Position numbers and translations under genes: made by a program
Assembly: GCA_963801605.1 (NCBI GenBank)
Contig: CAWDFP010000006.1
Span: forward strand, 1,184,001-1,248,000
DNA from: an uncultured candidate division Zixibacteria bacterium
GTDB taxonomy: Bacteria > Zixibacteria > MSB-5A5 > UBA10806
Direction of reading: 5' to 3'
Length of the DNA: 64,000 bases
Notes under the pieces: model-generated
The model's database searches: none
Told to the model about the DNA's origin: nothing
Seen by the model: only the letters and a program-made list of their open reading frames with translations
Shown here: piece after piece, positions 21,728 to 63,373 of the stretch
How the letters are laid out: each line of letters begins with the position of its first letter
Position numbering within the stretch: position 1 is the first letter of the stretch

Positions 21728-23133
21728 ATGGCAGATAAATTCAAGTTGGTTGTTATCGGGGCGGGACCGGGTGGATATGTGGCGGCTATCAGGGCCGCTC
21801 AACTTGGGTATTAAAACCGCTATAATTGAAAAAGAATATATTGGCGGGGTGTGCCTGAACTGGGGATGTATCCCATCGAAGGCGCTTCTCTATTTGGCCG
21901 AGCTCAAGCATTTGGTTGAGCAGTCGGAGCGAATTGGTTTAAAGGCTGAGAATGTCGGAATCGATATTGAAAAGCTCAAGAAACACAAAGAAGACACCGT
22001 CAAACGTCTCACCAGCGGTGTAAAAATCCTGCTCGATAAAGCGGGCGTTAAGATTTACAACGGCCAGGCTGCTTTTATATCGGATAAACAGATTGAGGTT
22101 ACCGGCAACGGGGGAGAAAAGACTCTTATCGATGCTGACAACTTCATCATTGCGACTGGATCTTCAACAGCCGATTTGCCCTTCTTGCGTATCGATGGAA
22201 AAAATGTCATCGGCGCCAGAGAAGCGATTGAATTGCCTCGCATACCTGAGCAAATGGGTATCATTGGCGCCGGTCCTATCGGCCTTGAAATGGCTACCGT
22301 TTACAGCGCTTTAGGTTCGAAAATCACAGTAATCGAGTTGTTAGGCGCGGTGTTGCCGACGCTTGATCAAGATATTTCAGCGGCTTCAGAGCGAGCATTG
22401 AGAAAACAGGGCATGGAGATTTATACCTCATCGCAGGTTAAGTCGGCCGAGCAAAAGGATGGAAAAATCATTTTAGAGGTCAAGACTCCTGATGGAGATA
22501 AATCCTTTTCCTTCGATATGGTTTTATTGGCCGTCGGTATGAAACCAAACTCCGCGTAATCTCAATCTCGAAAAAGCTGGGGTTAAAACCGATAATAAGG
22601 GTTTTATTGTAGTCGATAAGAAGATGCGAACCAGTATACCGAATATCTTCGCCATTGGTGATGTCGCCGGCGGCCTGCTGTTGGCTCATAAAGCCTCACA
22701 TGAGGGTATCGTAGCTGCCGAGGTTGTTGCGGGAGGCTTCGCCGAGGCCGATTGGAAGGGTGTTCCTTACGCTGTCTTTACTGAGCCGGAAATCGGGGGT
22801 ATCGGTCTGACGCAGCAGGAAGCGGTTGCGGCCGGCAAAAAGATAAAAATCGGGAAATTCCCCTATCGAGCAATCGGACGTGGTATCGCTACGTTAGCTA
22901 CCGACGGCTTTGCCAAGGTTATCTCAGATGAGGAAACCGATGAGATTCTAGGGATTCATGTCTTCGGGCCGCATTCTGGAGATATAGTTTTTGCCGGCAC
23001 CGCCTTGTTGGAATTTGATGGCACTTCAGAGGACCTGGGGCATTTGATGGCTATTCACCCTACTCTATCCGAGGCCTTGATGGAGGCCGGTTTGAACGTT
23101 CACAAGAGGGCAATTCATATCGTCAATATGTGA
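21728..23133 (+). CDS. lpdA: Dihydrolipoyl dehydrogenase E3 with two frameshifts (about 21806 and 22555)
   Basis: MADKFKLVVIGAGPGGYVAAIRAAQLG, GGVCLNWGCIPSK, GAGPIGLE, AIGD, HPTLSE spread over three frames. Confidence 0.92.
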
Positions 23134-24177: not shown

Positions 24178-24663
24178 ATGGAAAAATCATTCGTTGGCGA
24201 TCCTGTCCAATGGCCCGGATTGGTATATTCGCCCTTAAATAGCGCCGGACTTCTTTTTGCTTTGGGAGCAATTGCCGGGTCAGCCGGTTTGTTATTCGAG
24301 GAGTTTCAAGACGATTGTCAGACTGCGATATGCAGGCGCAAGACAGCAACCGGCTGGGAACGGCTCAAGGTCGCATTTGCCGTTAAAAGCTCATCTTACT
24401 ATGATTCATCCGATGATATTGATCTTTTAATATGCTGGGTAGATGATGCTCCCGATACAATCCGTATACCGCGGCTGGCTCTATCGCAATCGGCGTTAGT
24501 GACGCAAAATCGTGCTGAGCAGCCGGCAAAGGTCAAAGGGATCGAATCTATTCTGCCAGATGGAGCTGCGGAGGATCTAATGGAACGCGGCCGCAGCCAT
24601 GAATCGTATGAGGAGACTGTCAAGTTACTTGATGAGCAGATAAAAAAGCTGCAAAACAATTAA
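24178..24663 (+). CDS. Hypothetical protein resembling a degenerate PD-(D/E)XK nuclease-like domain
   Basis: GDPVQWPGLVYSPLN..GLLFALG...W.R....F...S...DLLICW pattern; own promoter. Confidence 0.6.
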   Translation: MEKSFVGDPVQWPGLVYSPLNSAGLLFALGAIAGSAGLLFEEFQDDCQTAICRRKTATGWERLKVAFAVKSSSYYDSSDDIDLLICWVDDAPDTIRIPRLALSQSALVTQNRAEQPAKVKGIESILPDGAAEDLMERGRSHESYEETVKLLDEQIKKLQNN

Positions 24664-24670
24664 TAATCGC

Positions 24671-24699
24671 TTGCAAAGGCAGGTTCGATCGGCCATAAT
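24671..24699 (+). promoter_or_regulatory. Sigma70-type promoter of cohesin/dockerin gene
   Basis: TTGCAA-17 nt-CATAAT. Confidence 0.5.
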
Positions 24700-24835
24700 A
24701 ATATTACTTTTGGAGCTTCACCAAAGGTACTTGGTTGGGAATTAATTTAGCCGACAAATCCATGTAAGTTGGCTAAAACCGCAAAATTGGGATATGAAAA
24801 TAAAATCCATAAAATTTAAAGAACGGAGATCCATC

Positions 24836-27026
24836 ATGTTGAGGAGAGAAGCATTCCGGGCAATATTGGTGATATTGGGCTTGGTCTGTTTTATTGGACT
24901 CCCATCCTTGTCTTTAGCGCAGGATCCGGGCATTCAGGATTCTATGATTATCGGTAAGCTGGATAGAACGCCAATTCTGGCGGGTCTGAACATGCAGATC
25001 CTCGTGCCGGTTTATTTGCGAACCGATGATTCGATTACATTCCTGCACATTCCGGTGGCTACCGATGATGATTTTATCGCGACTCGCGATGGCGGAATTC
25101 TATATCCGCCTCTTTCGCTGTGGGACGATAAATCATTTCTGGCCCCCGATCCTAATAGTCCCAGGGTAGGCTCTACGAATCAAAGCATTCTTGGATTTGC
25201 CTATCTCCAGGATCCCCGAGATCCCCAGAATTTTCTCTATACCAATAATCAGTGGGTACATATCGCCGATTTTCGGATGACGACCACCAACAATATCGCG
25301 GTTTTGGGTGATACCACCCAGTTTGTCATGGGCCGCAATCCCGCCAATGATACTTTGGTAATGGGTCTTCAGGATGGTGTCACTGAGGTTCATCCTGCCG
25401 TGATCTGGGGCAAAATTTATTTCCCGCCGAACACTCCGCCCGCATTTACCGGTCCGGTTGCAGGTACTTATCCGGTTAATGAGCAGTTTGGAGCGACTTT
25501 CGTTGTTACTGCCGTTGACCCCGACACCGATAGCATGGTCTTAACAGTTGATTTCGGTCCGACCGACTACACTTTCCAGCAATTGCAGAATGTCCCCGGA
25601 ACAATTTCGTATTTATTTAGCTGGGTGCCCGCCCCCGGAAGCGCCGGGACATATCCTCTTACATTTATTGTCAACGATGGCAACGGCGGTGTAATACCGC
25701 TGCAACTCACTCTCGAAGTAACGCCTGCCGGGCTTACCATCGGCAGTATGAACGCCATGCCGGGAGGCACTGTATCTATTCCGGTCGTGCTTGATAATCA
25801 GGGCAGTTCATCGGCAGTTGGGGCGTTCGAGGTGATGGTTAGCTGGAATCCCGAAGCTTTATCGCTTAATGGTGTGACACGCGCCGGACGAACAGGTAGT
25901 TTCGAATATTTCCATATAAACAGGGACGAGGGCGGACCTGGAACCGTAAAAATTGTGGGGGTTGCCGATCTCAGAAATGGCATAGTTTCGCCTCCCATGC
26001 AACCTGGCATTGGCCCGATCTTTATGCTCGATATGTCAGTTGCTCCGGATGAAAACCTGATTGGAGTTGATCTTCCGATTCCATTCTTAAATCTCGATCC
26101 CACCGATAATACCGTTTCTGATTCAACGGGTTACCTTCTCATTCGTCCCAACCTTACCAATGGATTACTCACTATTATCGGTCCGGAAGAGGTTTTATTG
26201 GGCGATATTAACCTCAACGGTTTGCCCTGCGAGGGCGGAGATATAGTTCTCTTTGTCAATCACCTGACCAATCGCATAGCGTTCCCCTTCAATGCCGTTC
26301 AGCGGGCAGCCTCCGACGTTAACGCCGATGGTCTTCCGGAAACGGTGGCCGATCTGATTTACACAATTAATATATTCAATGGCAATATCCAGCAGCCAAA
26401 GCTTGAAATAAACCCAGGCCTGCTCAATCTTAAAATGCTTAGCCAAAACGGCTCCACACAGTTTATTGCCCAATCACAGAGCGCGATCGGCGCTGTCTTG
26501 TTCAATCTTGCTCACGAACCCGGCGCGACGCTCACGCCTGTATCGAACGGCGCCTTCACGCTGGCATTCAATGATGACGGCAAAGTCCTCACTGTGCTTG
26601 CCTACCTGCCCAATTTGACCGAAGGCGGAGCTCCAACAGGCGAATGTGGACTTTTCACCGTAAACGGCAATTTCACCGAGGCCAATGTCACCGAGCTTTC
26701 AGCATCGAACGCTTATGGTTATTTGATGGAAGCGGGAGTTGTGCCTACAACCTACCAGCTTTCGCAGAACTATCCCAATCCGTTCAATGCCACCACAAAG
26801 ATCGAATTTGCGATGCCTGAGGCCGGCCATGTACGCCTCGATATTTACAGCGTCAGCGGCCAAAAGGTTTGCACTCTTATCGATGAAAACCGCAACGCGG
26901 GTTTCTACGGTGTGGTTTGGGATGGTACCGATAACGCCAATAATATTGTATCATCCGGTACCTATTTCTATCGGTCTGGCAACCGGAAGCGATGTTCGCG
27001 CCATGAAGATGACATTACTCAAGTAG
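24836..27026 (+). CDS. Secreted modular protein: cohesin-like, Ig/cadherin-like, cohesin, dockerin, FlgD-Ig/T9SS-like C-terminal domain (frameshift about 26973)
   Basis: SD GGAG, signal peptide SLSLA|QD; NTPP..AVDPD..VNDG; PGGTVSIPVVLDN; GDINLNG...SDVNADG..TVADLIY; QNYPNPFN...GTYFYR continuing as LATGSDVRAMKMTLLK in the next frame. Confidence 0.8.
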
Positions 27027-27048
27027 TAGATTTCGCGATCCAAAATAT

Positions 27049-27082
27049 AAGCCGGGGTTCAATCTCGAATCCCGGTTTTTTT
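27049..27082 (+). terminator. Intrinsic terminator
   Basis: AAGCCGGGGTTC/GAATCCCGGTTT stem running into T7. Confidence 0.8.
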
Positions 27083-27101
27083 ATTTGGGCATTTTAATAA
27101 T

Positions 27102-27136
27102 CAAGAGGCCGGAAAGGGGGATGCTCCGGCCTCTTG
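27102..27136 (-). terminator. Hairpin downstream of DinB-family gene
   Basis: Perfect 12-bp inverted repeat CAAGAGGCCGGA/TCCGGCCTCTTG. Confidence 0.65.
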
Positions 27137-27147
27137 CATAAGGGGGG

Positions 27148-27696
27148 TTACGCTTGGGAGAATACAGATCGAATACTATCTAAAACAATTTTAGTGGTTG
27201 AGCTCTTTTTCGGCGCCTCGTACCCTACTCGCCGTACCTTGAACGCCGGAAGATTGACCACATAGGTCACCTGCCCGATATGATGAGTCTCGTGCATATA
27301 GCTGTAAGCCAGATGCTGCCCAACACTATCAAATTGCCCTCTGCTGGGGCGCGAAAGAAGCGAGGGGTCGCACTGCTTCAAAAGCTGATCGGTTAATAGT
27401 TCGAGTTTCATAAAACGCGTCATAAGCTGTTTGGGTTGAGGATAAATCGATTGGTCGCTTGAGGGCTTGGTGCCGCGGGCAAAGAGATCGCCTAAATCGC
27501 GGGTGGACGGGTCACCTCCGAGAAGTTCGATAATCTCACCACGATTGAGTACAATATGGCCCACTAACCAGATCAAGGGATTGCCGCGCCCTTCCGGTCT
27601 GATGAAAAACTTATCCGACGAAACACCGTCCAATGTTCGTGCCAGATAGGCAAGATTAAATTTTAGCAACTCGGCAAAAAGACCCGTTGTGAACAT
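27148..27696 (-). CDS. DinB/YfiT-like metal-binding protein
   Basis: NPLIWLVGHI and HETHHIGQ His pattern; SD GGAG before ATG 27696. Confidence 0.85.
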   Translation of the reverse strand: MFTTGLFAELLKFNLAYLARTLDGVSSDKFFIRPEGRGNPLIWLVGHIVLNRGEIIELLGGDPSTRDLGDLFARGTKPSSDQSIYPQPKQLMTRFMKLELLTDQLLKQCDPSLLSRPSRGQFDSVGQHLAYSYMHETHHIGQVTYVVNLPAFKVRRVGYEAPKKSSTTKIVLDSIRSVFSQA

Positions 27697-37091: not shown

Positions 37092-39272
37092 CTAAGGAAG
37101 TCGATACCGTTTGCGCAAAGCCCATTCGAGACATAGGCCTGCTAAAAGAAGGCCGAGGAGTAACGGCAATCCAAACGGTCTGATACTCGCCTGATTTTCC
37201 TTCACATAAGGAATAAGCTTCAGCTGTTCCGGGAATTTTTGAAAATCATCGGCACTATAAGCAATGGCGCCGGTAGCATCGGAAATGCGTCTGGTGAGAT
37301 TATAATCGGGGGCGCTTGACGCCATCTCCAAACTGAAGTTTTCTATTGTAAATTCCCCCGATGTCTTGCCAACCGTATCACCGTAACTTGTGGCGTAAGC
37401 TTTAAAGTTGTAATGCCCGGGTCCCAGAGAAGATATTTCTTCAGAATATATACCATTGTTTACTGGGGGCAGAACAATATCTTTTACACTGGTCTGTTGG
37501 CTATCGGGTAAAACCGAAATCGCGACATAGGCGCCATTTTTGGGACGATTAGCCTCATCATAGAGATAGCCCGTCAAGCGGACGGGCTCGCCCAGACGAT
37601 ACACTTTGCGGCCCGTAATAACCTTGAAATTCTGCATCTGGTCGGTGGCGGCCGACCACTTAACGAGATTTCGCCAGAAATTCGGAATTGCCCCTGCGAT
37701 CTTCTGATCACTGACTGAGCCGAAATAGCTCTGCCACCAGGGATATCCGGTGATTGCGGCCACTCGACCTTTGCCGTGCTGGGCGACTGTCAAAACAGGC
37801 TGTCCATCCAGCCTGGTCGGATTTGGTATTCTGATATTTAGAAGCGAATCATTTATGCTTATCCCGGCTTCCAAAAGAACAATTCCGGTAGGCTCGATTC
37901 CCGTGATGATATCTCTGAATGGCGGCAACGAATGCCAGAGTCGCGCGCTCTGATCGGGATCATCATTCATCAGAATTGCCGCATGCTGTTTTCGGGTTGG
38001 CGCCGGTTCGAAAGAATATTCGCTTTCTCTTATCTGAGGATTCGTTAGTTTTATCGGAAGCAGATCTCCAAACGCCTTTATATTATAAATTGCATTTGTG
38101 CCAGCCAGATAGATCAGGGAGCCGCCTTCATCGAGATATTTTCCAAGGTCGGCCGTGGAGATATGTAAATCGCCGGGAGCGCTGTTTACAAGAATTATTG
38201 TATCATACTTTTTTAGGCCCTCAAGCCCGCGAAGAGTACCGGGTGATGCAAAATTCCCCGGAGCCAGCGAATAAACCGCGTCAATATCAAACTCCTCAAA
38301 TTTCGAAAGCGCCTGTTTTACAAATTTGAATTCCCAATTAAGAGCTGACGATCCTATGAAAAGTTTGAGCTTGTTTTTAAGCACGCGAATGGCGAAAATC
38401 CTATCATTGTCGACCTTATTGGTTTCGCCTTCGAGAATTGGAGTCGATACCGTATATTCGTAATTTCCCGGTTCAGGCGCTTTTAGATCGAAACTAACTT
38501 TAACTTTTCTGCCTTCCTGGGGGATATCGAAGGGCTTGTCCGATATCACGTTGGAACCAAGCTTGAGGAACACTCTTGATTTACCCGCTGGCAGACCCTC
38601 CGCCGAAAGTTCAGCTTCGATCTTTAAATCCGCTCCGCTATATGCTACGGCGGGGTAGATGGTGTTATCTATTGAAATATTTATTTCCGGTATTTGATGT
38701 CCGACCGTCAAGGTATAAACCGGCATGTTTAGCTTACTCGCCGCCGTAATTGGATCCTCGCCCAAATTCTGACGACCATCCGTTACAACTATGGCGGCGC
38801 CATAATTATCAATATCTTTTCTCGAGGCCAGATCCCGCAACGCGTTGGCAATCGAGGTAGCATCGCCCGTGAGGTCCGATTCGGCCGGAACGCCGTCCGC
38901 TTCCTTGATGCCTGTGGAAAAATCGAATATGTGGTGTTCCGCTTTTATATTCGCTAGCGCCTTCTGAGTTAATTCGCTTGCTTCCGCAATACGGCTCGTA
39001 GTTCCCTCTCTGACCCCCATGCTCTTGGAGATATCCATGAGGACCGCAATTTGAGGCTTGATGGTTTTGGTCGAATATAAATTTATCAGCGGCTCGATCA
39101 GGAAAATTCCCAATAGCAGCAGCATAACTGATCTCAGGGCGGCCAGGAAGAATTTTTGAGCTTTTCCCAGCGGAGGAAAGCTGCTACGATACGAAATTAT
39201 TCCAATCGCGATGGCTATAATTGTAAGAAGTATATACCAGATGATGTGATGAGAGATTAACTGGATTTCCAT
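37092..39272 (-). CDS. Membrane-anchored vWA-domain protein with Ig-like and GATase-like regions
   Basis: Two N-terminal TMs, MIDAS DISKS..T..TDG, GKGRV, C-terminal TM ending LEWALRKR. Confidence 0.8.
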   Translation of the reverse strand: MEIQLISHHIIWYILLTIIAIAIGIISYRSSFPPLGKAQKFFLAALRSVMLLLLGIFLIEPLINLYSTKTIKPQIAVLMDISKSMGVREGTTSRIAEASELTQKALANIKAEHHIFDFSTGIKEADGVPAESDLTGDATSIANALRDLASRKDIDNYGAAIVVTDGRQNLGEDPITAASKLNMPVYTLTVGHQIPEINISIDNTIYPAVAYSGADLKIEAELSAEGLPAGKSRVFLKLGSNVISDKPFDIPQEGRKVKVSFDLKAPEPGNYEYTVSTPILEGETNKVDNDRIFAIRVLKNKLKLFIGSSALNWEFKFVKQALSKFEEFDIDAVYSLAPGNFASPGTLRGLEGLKKYDTIILVNSAPGDLHISTADLGKYLDEGGSLIYLAGTNAIYNIKAFGDLLPIKLTNPQIRESEYSFEPAPTRKQHAAILMNDDPDQSARLWHSLPPFRDIITGIEPTGIVLLEAGISINDSLLNIRIPNPTRLDGQPVLTVAQHGKGRVAAITGYPWWQSYFGSVSDQKIAGAIPNFWRNLVKWSAATDQMQNFKVITGRKVYRLGEPVRLTGYLYDEANRPKNGAYVAISVLPDSQQTSVKDIVLPPVNNGIYSEEISSLGPGHYNFKAYATSYGDTVGKTSGEFTIENFSLEMASSAPDYNLTRRISDATGAIAYSADDFQKFPEQLKLIPYVKENQASIRPFGLPLLLGLLLAGLCLEWALRKRYRLP

Positions 39273-59314: not shown

Positions 59315-61486
59315 CTATCTCAATAGCACCATCTTTCGCGCCGTCTGGTTCCGTCCTTCGATGATATAGAAATAAACCCCCGAGGACGCATCCCTGGCAT
59401 CCCAGATCAATTCATGCTTTCCCGCGGATTGAAAGCCCGTTTCGAGTGCAGCTACTTTGCGTCCCAGGATATCATAGATCTCAAGCGTCACCTCAGTGGC
59501 GTTAGGAAGATAATAGCTTATCGTCGTCTGCGCGTTGAACGGGTTGGGGTAGTTTTGTAAAAGCGTAAATTCTTTCGGCGTGTTCGGAATTTCCCGCGTC
59601 TCTATGCCCGTTGGCGCGCCCCAACGAAGATGCTGAAGAGAGTAGTAGTCTGAGGCAAAAAAGTTATTGCCGATTGTACATACCTGATTGATAACGTTGC
59701 CGGTAGAGTAGCCGCCTTTATATTGAAGATCATTGTAAGGCATATAATTGAAAGTAAAAATCTTTATTCCATTGACACCATCGGCGATATAAAGAGTATC
59801 GTTTGAGGAATAAATTTGCTTTACGTCGGAGAAGTACTCAGGGCCGAGGAATGCCAGGCTGTCGAACGTGTTGATATCAAAAATATGGGTGCCATGACGG
59901 CCCGAGGCCCAAATTATGGCATTTAATATATCAAGATTTTGCAAAGTATCCGCTGGCAATTGCAATTCCAGCTCTATTACTGGTAGAGTAGGGTTGGCGG
60001 CGTTAATCTTAACCAACTTCGCCAAATTCTCCTCGAGAAGAACCGAGGTGTTTAGATACTGCCCTATCGATGTCAGGCTGCCTGCGGGAAAGTCCATACG
60101 CGAGAGGATGGCCATGCCGTTTAGAGAATCATAATCGATGACATAATATGATTGATCGGTTATGGCAAACAAGAGGCTGTCGTAAGCCGCGCAATCCAAA
60201 ATCTCAGCCTCAAAACCGATTAGGAAATGGCTGACCACCGGCTGGGCCGGATTCGCCAGGTTGACCTGGAAAATTCTATCCCGGCAAAAACAGATTGCAG
60301 ATGAGCCGATAGTTATAATTTTGGTAGGCTCTACTCCATCCAATGCTGCAATGAGATTCAGTTGATTTGACTGATCAATCTCGTGCACTAACAGCTCCCC
60401 GCCATTAGATTCCGCGCCAGAAAGAATGTAATTGCCATAGGTGGCAGTGGAGAGGATGCCATAGTGCTCTGGGCCGGTAGAGGCTAAAAGGGGCATCTGT
60501 ATATTATATGAAAAGGTAGCTTGATAAATATCTATTGAATGGATTTGATCTTTAATAAAATACTGATTATTGTATATTTCAAAATTGCAGTTAATTCCCA
60601 AAGTATTCGGTGACAGGGGACCCAATATTGACATATTACTATAGGAAAAGACGTCACCTACATCCGTAAATATATCTGAAAATGCATATCCGTATTTGGT
60701 ACATTGGTATTCAATGGGATCAGAAAAGGGATAACCGGTAATATCTCGCCAAGCGCTGTCTGGCAAAAATTGATAAAAAAGTAATCCGCTACTAAACATT
60801 ACGGTCGAATATCCTATTGCCAAAGTATCACCGTTTCCTTGAGTCATTCCATAGGACACAGAGCCAACGCTAACCGTGTCGGAATATCCCAGGACTATAT
60901 TATCAGGCATTCTTATATCATAAATATCATAATAGATGACAGATATAACGAGAATATAGTATTCCGCATATACTATTACCAAAGGCGATTGTTACAAAAA
61001 TTCCATGAGGTATGCTTCTATATAATGAAATTGAGAAACTAATGTTGGATTATTGATATCGCTGATACTATATGTCCTGATAGAATCATCATTCGAAACG
61101 GCGAATAAATAATTACCCGCTAATTTCCAATTGAGCATGCCCAATAAGGAAATATGACCTGCAACTCGCGTGCTATCAAAATCTGCGAAATCGACCAAAC
61201 TTAATTCGCCAGATTCGGCTTTCGCCATCAGCCGTCTCTGAAAATCTATCTGGTCAAAACCCGAGACCTCCTCGCGGCCGATAAATACCGGATTGGACGG
61301 ATCGGCTATGTAATAGCGCTCCACACCGTGACCATTAAGCGTATTAACATAAAGTGTATCGCCGTCAAGGGCCAACTTGCCGTATCCCGACGGCCATAAA
61401 GTATTGATATGATCTATTTCATTTTGGGCAATTGCCGGATAGGTAAATATAAAAAGCGCACAAATGATTTTGATAATCTTACACAT
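59315..61486 (-). CDS. Secreted LVIVD-like beta-propeller protein with FlgD-Ig/T9SS-like C-terminal domain, interrupted by in-frame TAA at 60992-60994
   Basis: Signal peptide PAIA|QN; YIADPSNP, ISDINNP, NLANPAQP, LYIADG repeats; QNYPNPFN...KMVLLR; both ORF pieces share a frame. Confidence 0.75.
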
Positions 61487-61921: not shown

Positions 61922-63373
61922 CTACTTCACCAACACTAACTTGATAGAGCTCCGCCTTTGCCCGTTTTCAAGCCGCGCAAAATATACCCCTGACGATTGA
62001 CCATTCCCGTTCCACAAGACCTTGTGCTCGCCAGCGTTTTGATTGCCATCGCGTAGCGTAGCCACCATCTGTCCCGTCAGATTGTATATCGTTAGCCTCA
62101 CATCACCTGGCCCGGTAAGGTTGTAACGAATCAGCGTACTGCCGTTAAATGGGTTGGGATAGCACTCCAGCAGCGCTGTCCTTTCCGGTATCGGTTCATC
62201 TTCGATCCCCTGAGTGGGGATCATGATACTTATCTGCGATTCGCTGTCCGGTTCCGAATATTGCCCGCAGGATGTTCGCGCGAAAACCGTGTAATAATAA
62301 CGCACTCCGGGCGTGAGCGTATCGCCGATCAACTCCTGGCCCGGTCCCTCATAAACGATATCGCCGTCAAACGGCGTCTGCGGAAAACCGGTGGTGCTCC
62401 TGTGAAGAATCGCCTCTGTAAAAACACTCATCCAGACCGGGTTTGTCCAGCCAATATCGGCTTTTCCATCGATAGTGTCAGCATGGATGCCTATTACCTT
62501 AAGCCCCGGGATGTAGAAACGGTTGGCAGCGCCGCGGCTTGGAAAACCATCATTGAAACTGAACGATGTAATATCATTGTAGCCCCAGAAAGCTCGAGAC
62601 CAATTCTGTCGAGTTGTATCACCATCGGGGTAGCGCATAAAAGAAACATCCGCGCCATGATCGCTTGACCACCCAACCTGATCAACCAGGCAACTATCGG
62701 TATCAATTAAATAAATATTATCAGCTTCAAAATCCATATCGAAAATGGACGGGAAATTATTTTCATCTAAGACATAATATCCATGAGGGCCGATTCTGGC
62801 ATTCTCGGGTAAATTGTATATAGTATCACAAACAATTTTCCAATCTGCAAGATTGACCTCGCTATTAGTAATATTATAAAGCTCCACGAAATTGCATCTA
62901 TTAGCCCAATCGCAATGGGAATTTATTTCATTGATCACCACCTGATTTCCTCCATGGTACGACCATACGAAATCGAAGCTCAGGCAATAGAGCATTGGAG
63001 AATACAATTTGCGATCAACTGAATAACCTTTGATGGGTGGAGTGCTTATATCCCACGTACCCCATTTAACCGGTTCCATTCCAGGAAGATTTGTTGTTAA
63101 TGAATCTGTTTCTGAATTGAAAACAAATCCGGAGGTATTAGAAGAATCAAGTATGATAGAATAAGAGGAATTTACTCCTGAATCAATTAAGGCTATTCCT
63201 GTTGACGTATATATGGTATCGCCGGAAAGATCAGTCGGCTGATATGTACGAATGCGAAATTCTGGCGGATATGCCCTTACATACTCGATATAAAATGGCG
63301 GCAACGGATTTGCCATCGCTCCATTCATGGCAAACATGCCCGCCAAAAGAATAAGTATCAGCAATCTTTTCAT
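61922..63373 (-). CDS. Secreted protein with lamin-tail domain, Fn3-like domain and FlgD-Ig/T9SS-like C-terminal domain
   Basis: Signal peptide; VVINEI..FVELYN..VNLADW; WTNP..YYYTVFA; YPNPFN...KLVLVK; SD GGAGG. Confidence 0.8.
   Translation of the reverse strand: MKRLLILILLAGMFAMNGAMANPLPPFYIEYVRAYPPEFRIRTYQPTDLSGDTIYTSTGIALIDSGVNSSYSIILDSSNTSGFVFNSETDSLTTNLPGMEPVKWGTWDISTPPIKGYSVDRKLYSPMLYCLSFDFVWSYHGGNQVVINEINSHCDWANRCNFVELYNITNSEVNLADWKIVCDTIYNLPENARIGPHGYYVLDENNFPSIFDMDFEADNIYLIDTDSCLVDQVGWSSDHGADVSFMRYPDGDTTRQNWSRAFWGYNDITSFSFNDGFPSRGAANRFYIPGLKVIGIHADTIDGKADIGWTNPVWMSVFTEAILHRSTTGFPQTPFDGDIVYEGPGQELIGDTLTPGVRYYYTVFARTSCGQYSEPDSESQISIMIPTQGIEDEPIPERTALLECYPNPFNGSTLIRYNLTGPGDVRLTIYNLTGQMVATLRDGNQNAGEHKVLWNGNGQSSGVYFARLENGQRRSSIKLVLVK

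Follow-up and report, generated by a model that had tools for sequence, protein, structure and literature searches.

The window analysed here, 64,000 nucleotides of a contig from an uncultured member of the Zixibacteria, carries on its forward strand (24836-27026) a gene for a secreted protein, hereafter the scaffold protein, that joins two domains with predicted cohesin folds, a predicted dockerin and a type IX secretion system (T9SS) sorting tail in one chain. A first-pass annotation, made from the sequence alone, proposed that it could be a scaffoldin or adaptor for a complex in a diderm bacterium that uses cohesins and dockerins without being a cellulosome, and the predicted folds together with a census of dockerins in the genome support that proposal. 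A homolog search returned 167 homologs; among the 120 listed, at least 85 score above 300 bits, mostly at full length (about 730 aa), and those listed under an organism name come from Zixibacteria. Many genomes have an intact ortholog of about 730-750 aa. We describe the domains from an AlphaFold2 model built on 84 aligned sequences (mean pLDDT 88), in which six domains are seen, and every statement on folds below refers to predicted models.

The chain begins with a leader-like N-terminus at residues 1-28 (24836-24919), a predicted Sec/signal peptidase I (SPI) signal peptide judged by eye and with a crude hydrophobicity rule. It ends in SLA before QD, and the mature start QDP is at least 90% conserved among the 84 sequences. 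The N-terminal domain that follows (about 24929-25423) is a cohesin-fold domain with insertions and belongs to a lineage-variable class. Folded alone it reaches a pLDDT of 93, and the top Foldseek matches among those listed are all cohesins (5nrm_A, E 7e-6, TMt 0.73; TMt up to 0.74). HHalign relates it to the central cohesin with a probability of 97.9% (E 5e-13) when a diverse alignment is used, whereas a shallow alignment gave 1%. Between the two cohesins lies an Ig/cadherin-like spacer (25430-25723), which has Ig-fold matches over model residues 169-271 and a match to Big_9 (E 0.0019) that stays below the cut-off. The central domain (25727-26179) has a type I-like cohesin fold, with the nine-stranded beta-sandwich of cohesins in its predicted model and its best structural matches in 5nrm, 4uyp and 3ul4. 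Aligned to 5nrm_A with VIA, it gives Z 19.5 and a root-mean-square deviation (rmsd) of 1.6 Å for 140 residues; each of the 36 best-ranked rows is an entry that contains a cohesin, and a wide search of 48,161 chains again returns a cohesin (Z 19.3). The first-pass annotation had named generic Ig folds as the outcome that would speak against its proposal; the predicted fold is that of a cohesin in both domains.

An internal dockerin (26192-26389) follows, with two 13-residue Ca loops and the consensus E-[VI]-[GSA]-D and T-[VI]-A-D of what we call the scaffold class. Its predicted three-helix fold superimposes on 2ccl_B over 62 of 62 residues (VIA, Z 11.4, rmsd 1.3 Å) and scores equally with 5m2o_B (Z 11.4), and the putative Ca ligands D457, N459, N461, E466, D469, D494, N496, D498, T503 and D506 are 93-100% conserved in the homolog alignment. 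The sorting tail (26744-27026), of T9SS type A, runs from YPNPFN to KMTLLK and the stop, and is spread over two frames in a three-frame reading; it exceeds the cut-offs of TIGR04183 (25.6 bits against 23) and FlgD_ig (30.3 bits against 27). The FlgD_ig profile overlaps T9SS tails, which accounts for the second match, and we ruled out a FlgD flagellar hook cap; FlgD_ig has 95 matches in the genome. Between dockerin and tail lies a domain of about 108 residues (26417-26740), here termed X, which the first-pass annotation did not mention and which is predicted as an eight-stranded beta-sandwich that matches no known family with confidence. By eye it suggested a third cohesin, and HHalign gives this a probability below 1% with shallow and deeper profiles; the corresponding slot of a 709-aa paralog scores as a Pfam cohesin. 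No catalytic family was detected in the scaffold protein, as the first-pass annotation had noted, and Pfam gave no match to a carbohydrate-binding module (CBM). A whole-chain Foldseek search was set aside, swamped by meaningless multi-Ig matches. The signal peptide, both cohesin-like domains, the Ig-like repeat, the duplicated Ca-loop dockerin and the C-terminal domain had all been proposed before, and each is borne out by these analyses.

The genome contains 14 cohesin genes, of which 11 carry a T9SS tail. Six of these 11 have an internal dockerin, and the other five consist solely of a leader, one cohesin and the tail; the remaining three are two lone cohesins and one cohesin joined to a dockerin of the cargo type described below. 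The N-terminal cohesin of the scaffold protein shares its class with four of the single-cohesin-plus-tail proteins, and other cohesin classes are also present. Six cohesin genes cluster at 266-283 kb of contig C6, together with large dockerin-terminated proteins, and this cluster (C6:258-283 kb) is likely the hub of the docking system. On the minus strand of this region (loci L001/L002), next after the six cohesin genes come proteins with a terminal dockerin, one of 2,657 aa with Ig repeats, an S8 peptidase of 929 aa and one of about 1,600 aa. The two lone secreted cohesins lie at C6:1732363 and C7:388815.

Pfam finds 19 dockerin matches in the genome, and a genome-specific profile finds 51 dockerin modules in 53 open reading frame (ORF) segments, all at most 47 residues from the stop. 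The second outcome that the first-pass annotation had set against its proposal, a genome with no other dockerin-bearing proteins, is thus not what we see. None of the 53 segments has a T9SS tail, either in its own frame or in the 700 nt that follow. A crude rule gives SPI-like leaders for 31 of the 53 and a lipobox for none; many of the others are frameshift fragments. Positions 10 and 11 of the dockerin repeat are established specificity determinants (PMC8063739). Of 95 parsed repeats, 77 have G-L at this pair, and 92 have G-[LIVM]. A tail-ending paralog exists for 25 of 40 dockerin passengers (for 11 of the 40 over at least 60% of the length), and members of the same passenger family end either in a dockerin or in a T9SS tail, two tags that exclude each other and are interchangeable.

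We scanned 65 segments with Pfam (E <= 1e-6), the 53 dockerin segments and 12 upstream ones. Peptidases in frame with a dockerin belong to S8 (two), C25 (three), M14 and M28, and peptidases on upstream fragments of split genes to C25, M14 and C1. The other cargoes include LVIVD, Kelch and Vps10 propellers, Ig chains and a cupredoxin, and many are without a Pfam match; some reach 1,600-2,657 aa. Because most cargoes are propellers, Ig chains or proteins without an assigned family, the set looks like a general display system. No glycoside hydrolase (GH) family was found among the 65 segments at this threshold, many cargoes being without a Pfam match, and searches of this 87%-complete genome for CBM3 and GH9 found neither, while controls matched; GH48 and GH5 were not searched for. 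The suggestion that the system acts on protein rather than cellulose is partly upheld by the cargo, with about 10 of the 51 cargoes being peptidases and no glycoside hydrolase among them.

One secreted protein (L060:1123-2898, plus strand) combines five CxxCH haem motifs with an Ig domain and with a G-L dockerin at its end, which makes it a candidate for a surface cytochrome attached by docking; ORFs with 42 (C6:773354) and 58 (C6:306520) CxxCH motifs are also present in the genome. Two tandem genes of about 115 codons (L040:304-1034, minus strand) encode solely a signal peptide and a G-L/G-I dockerin, and these dockerin-only proteins and the lone secreted cohesins are possible caps or competitors. 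Three proteins of about 180-200 aa (L059, L061 and L062), each with a leader, a small 'xVDxYVxxxGG' domain and a dockerin, are encoded directly downstream of fibre-like genes ending in Peptidase_S74, and may be adaptors docking trimeric fibres.

The machinery that would export tailed proteins is represented in the genome by SprA (717 bits, cut-off 200), PorU (701, cut-off 420) and a member of the PorV/PorQ family (237, cut-off 90); this PorV candidate clears the family cut-off but not the PorV equivalog cut-off. We counted 118 T9SS tail modules. The GldM motor (TIGR03517) gave no match in the 87%-complete genome, and no control genome matched either. Two secretin genes are present. Right after porU lies a gene for a PorV-family protein (L064:10290-12875, plus strand) with a propeller-like insertion of about 530 residues within the barrel sequence, and this protein might combine PorV and PorZ-like roles.

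To place the scaffold protein in its phylum, we surveyed 151 genomes, this one (G000) included, which are kin and not independent. Dockerin_1 occurs in 149 of the 151, the cohesin-dockerin unit of the query in 146, and SprA (SprA_N) in 150. A scan of species genomes yielded 75 loci related to the scaffold gene, mostly titled Zixibacteria, with others labelled in the deposited records as Ignavibacteria, Calditrichota, GN15 or unclassified. They hold 114 complete dockerin ORFs (two cut ones were set aside), and these fall into two classes: the scaffold class is accompanied by a cohesin in 102 of 102 ORFs and by a tail in 94 of 102, whereas the G-L class is tailed in 0 of 12, counts in which the scaffold class is over-represented through the choice of loci by their scaffold and from which the G-L profile leaves out the cargo of other lineages. 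The internal dockerin of the scaffold protein thus belongs to a second class, found only in cohesin-bearing chains and conserved across families, and its motifs E-[IV]-[AGS]-D and [TS]-[VI]-A-D are kept throughout the related loci. The cassette of cohesin, dockerin, X domain and C-terminal sorting domain (Coh-Doc-X-CTD) recurs under varied N-terminal passengers (about 500 to more than 3,500 aa; 102 cassettes), and orthologs frequently occur as tandem paralogs.

The recognition pair of the cargo dockerins varies by lineage and takes the forms G-L, I-L and M-G. In one relative (G045), 28 of the best 30 of 72 dockerin matches are terminal and none is tailed, and I-L stands in both repeats in 22 of the 28. 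In another (G034), 17 of 26 dockerin matches are terminal, and 11 of these 17 have M-G in one repeat or in both. Among distant cassettes with an upstream cohesin (n = 26), the median identity to the query is 18% for the N-terminal cohesin, 30.5% for the central cohesin and 34% for the dockerin.

The ORF of the scaffold protein as assembled (24794/24836-27097) encodes 767 aa from an ATG at 24794 or 753 aa from the ATG at 24836; among homologs the upstream ATG is called in P0001 and P0004 and the second in P0002. Its last 40 or so codons are out of frame, and a three-frame reading places the canonical KMTLLK end with its stop at 27024-27026, where the first-pass annotation had ended the gene, in a different frame from the upstream ORF. 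Comparison with intact orthologs locates a one-base frameshift, not stated in that annotation, at 26972-26975. The same end is in frame in the 90%-identical homolog P0001 and in orthologs of relatives; lpd (21750-23133) and one paralog of the scaffold gene are also split in this assembly, and, by a crude rule, 103 of 125 tails in this assembly have the canonical end, compared with 135 of 144 in relatives. For these reasons, the frameshift near 26973-26975 is probably an assembly error rather than the mark of a pseudogene. Four read runs, which contain only 5-8% of the words, gave no read over 26884-27200. An RNA-library contig matching 24935-25165 was not taken as evidence of transcription.

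Upstream of the gene lies a sigma-70-like promoter candidate (TTGCAA-17-CATAAT, 9/12, 24671-24699), and just past the in-register stop a terminator-like 12-bp hairpin with a T-run (27049-27088). Promoter-like sites number 5 against 3.8 expected in the region and terminator-like sites 3 against 3.0, so the candidate sites for an own promoter and terminator are present at chance-level counts, and it is their position that speaks for them. An ORF of 161 aa (24178-24663, plus strand) without a Pfam match recurs directly upstream of the ortholog in 13 of the 75 related loci, and no other neighbour in the window was found to be conserved there; we take it to resemble a degenerate PD-(D/E)xK-type domain, as a candidate assignment. 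Homologs of the bkd, lpd, ald and CoA-transferase genes, VIT and DinB were found beside the scaffold in none of the 75 loci, 33 of which are at least 16 kb long. The part of the protein-degradation argument that had been drawn from nearby peptide-catabolic genes is accordingly ruled out. Elsewhere in the window, the dihydrolipoamide dehydrogenase gene lies in two ORFs (21750-23133, plus strand), one of many probable indel errors in the assembly; two more T9SS-tail proteins, one with a lamin-tail domain, are encoded at 59315-60982 and 61922-63373 (minus strand); and a 726-aa ORF (37092-39272, minus strand) has no Pfam family at E <= 0.001.

We consider it probable, with moderate confidence, that the scaffold protein is an outer-surface anchoring and adaptor scaffoldin that captures dockerin-tagged, tail-less proteins, and that its central cohesin and its own dockerin link one scaffold to another. 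By analogy with Bacteroidota, it would be exported by Sec and then directed by its tail through SprA, and cleavage of the tail by a PorU-type sortase would tie it to the surface. Binding between cohesin and dockerin would depend on Ca, as in cellulosomes. The lineage-variable N-terminal cohesin would most likely bind the lineage-specific dockerins of the cargo, and the conserved central cohesin would most likely bind the conserved scaffold dockerin of other Coh-Doc-X-CTD proteins, joining the scaffolds. The outcome would be a surface network that shows peptidases (S8, C25, M14, M28 and C1), propellers, Ig adhesins and the pentahaem protein. The self-polymerising scaffold that the first-pass annotation offered as one option would be compatible with the two dockerin classes. 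The pairing of cohesins with dockerins is the weakest step of this mechanism.

Several observations weigh against the surface-scaffoldin reading. The central domain scores 20.8 bits with Pfam Cohesin (PF00963), under the cut-off of 24.1, which several homologs and paralogs pass, and Dockerin_1 (PF00404) gives no match on the scaffold protein, whose dockerin has one extra residue in each Ca loop and matches 5m2o_B weakly (E 0.025) in a profile search of the PDB. We base the cohesin and dockerin assignments on predicted structure and motif conservation because the sequence profiles alone are weak. The sorting tail is frameshifted as assembled, recognisable peptidases are few among the cargoes, and a long tandem-cohesin scaffoldin was not found in this genome, where at most two to three cohesins per chain were seen. 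Outside this genome, 9 of the 26 dockerin matches of G034 are internal and mostly outside the two-class scheme, with one of the nine tailed. The contrast in cohesin identity seen in the distant cassettes is reversed in the close group (57% for the N-terminal cohesin against 49.5% for the central one), and it is confounded by the choice of loci. The uniform dockerins of each genome could stem from recent duplication or conversion, not from selection by a receptor. The anchoring model also leaves the route of the tail-less cargo over the outer membrane unexplained.

It is on this last point that a different role for the cohesin-plus-tail proteins can be considered, in which dockerin cargo without a tail binds them while still in the periplasm and passes with them through the T9SS translocon, so that the dockerin would be not just a surface plug but also a second secretion signal. 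Such an export adaptor is compatible with the surface-scaffoldin reading and does not exclude it; we judge it unlikely. It would fit the mutual exclusion of dockerin and tail on the same passenger families, the SPI-like cargo leaders without a lipobox, and the five proteins made solely of a leader, one cohesin and a tail. The cargo with five CxxCH motifs would need to fold in the periplasm, as c-type cytochromes do. However, the two secretin genes offer a type II secretion system- or pilus-like route for folded cargo, cargoes of 1,600-2,657 aa would be a heavy load, and periplasmic binding would also allow premature cross-linking of scaffolds. An extension of this idea, in which a lineage-barcoded dockerin acts as a second outer-membrane address, so that folded cargo (proteases, adhesins and the pentahaem protein) travels piggyback through the T9SS before the scaffolds, by means of their own conserved dockerin, cross-link into a self-assembling surface lattice, a cellulosome-like coat in two tiers, seems to us similarly improbable.

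The docking of cargo might also be taken away from the scaffold protein, if the Coh-Doc-X-CTD proteins formed only a structural coat or adhesin lattice and the G-L cargo bound the single-cohesin anchors or some other receptor. The conservation of the cassette as a unit under very different passengers, the frequent tandem paralogs among the orthologs and the other cohesin classes in the genome are all consistent with this. Nevertheless, four single-cohesin anchors share the class of the N-terminal cohesin, and within the family this domain equals the central cohesin in conservation, which suggests that it has a partner of its own, and we find such a pure coat rather doubtful. We give least credence, and very little, to the view that there is no docking at all, either because the cohesin- and dockerin-like domains are Ca-stabilised spacers or caps or because this copy is a true pseudogene. 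The sub-threshold Pfam scores and the frameshift, at a site that the reads do not cover, would agree with it, but lineage-specific residues stand symmetrically at known specificity positions in three families, the putative Ca ligands are near-invariant, and intact orthologs are found in many genomes while frameshifts are common in this assembly.

The first-pass annotation regarded the window's scaffold as a candidate for an undescribed system, and this was overstated, because Williams et al. (2021) proposed a cellulosome-like complex, from genomes alone, for Ca. Stygibacter (Cloacimonadota), with dockerin-bearing S8 and C25 peptidases and a T9SS-tailed cohesin scaffold (PMC8542988). The two cases share a diderm candidate phylum, a cohesin scaffold with a T9SS-type C-terminal domain and C-terminal dockerins on S8 and C25 peptidases, and the present genome likewise encodes both such peptidases and a tailed cohesin protein. 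Ca. Stygibacter differs in its single scaffoldin of 3,755 aa, which contains tandem cohesins and CBM2/3, and in having GH18 and GH57 among its cargo; no large scaffoldin with tandem cohesins and CBMs was found in the genome studied here. Here the scaffolds are short, with two to three cohesins and an internal dockerin of a second class, CBM3 and GH9 were not found, there are about 50 cargoes per genome, and the pattern is seen throughout the phylum. A second precedent is the 'planctosome' of Nemodlikiaceae (Planctomycetes), a hypothetical peptide-degrading cohesin-dockerin complex (Andrei et al. 2019, PMC6461901), which resembles our case in having an adaptor with dockerin and cohesin in one chain and an M14 peptidase as cargo. 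It differs, as far as the available text goes, in being anchored by a lamin-tail protein and not by the T9SS and in having few components, and no two-class dockerin scheme is described in that text.

The clostridial scaffoldins (ScaB/ScaC of A. cellulolyticus, OlpA/OlpC of C. thermocellum) are similar in the type I-like cohesin fold, in the dockerin fold (2ccl, 5m2o) and in the separation of enzyme-borne from scaffold-borne dockerin classes, but they belong to monoderms, are anchored through S-layer homology domains or sortase, and carry cellulases. A clostridial scaffold dockerin is usually terminal. That of the Zixibacteria is internal, with 13-residue Ca loops, and is followed by the X domain and the T9SS tail. 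The symmetric repeats of the cargo dockerins recall those of dual-mode binders (PMC8063739). With type A cargo of the Bacteroidota T9SS, which is cleaved by PorU and anchored to anionic lipopolysaccharide (A-LPS; Lasica et al. 2017, PMC5445135), the scaffold protein shares a signal peptide and C-terminal domain, and the genome has SprA, PorU and PorV-family genes; unlike in Bacteroidota, a parallel dockerin tag takes the place of the tail on many paralogous passengers. The system works like the adaptor and anchor tier of a cellulosome, yet it is not a cellulosome, because no dockerin-bearing cellulase or hemicellulase was found with Pfam among its cargo. We found no paper on Zixibacteria with dockerin, cohesin or T9SS in a literature search whose coverage left out most subscription journals and supplements.

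A good understanding of cohesin-dockerin assembly is confined to Gram-positive cellulolytic anaerobes. In the present survey, almost all genomes sampled from a Gram-negative phylum have a predicted cohesin-dockerin system, which is built on the type IX pathway and in which from tens to more than 70 proteins are tagged in a genome. Others have already put forward the concept for Cloacimonadota and Planctomycetes, in both cases without experiments; what goes beyond mere annotation are the family-specific recognition pairs and the question of export. The two specificity classes and the family-specific pairs are testable predictions, and the lineage-specific pairs could yield new orthogonal cohesin-dockerin parts for designer scaffolds. 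For T9SS biology, the system raises the question of which route over the outer membrane is taken by proteins in which a dockerin has replaced the sorting tail. If the surface-scaffoldin reading is true, this system would be a main organiser of the Zixibacteria cell surface and of protein scavenging in these bacteria.

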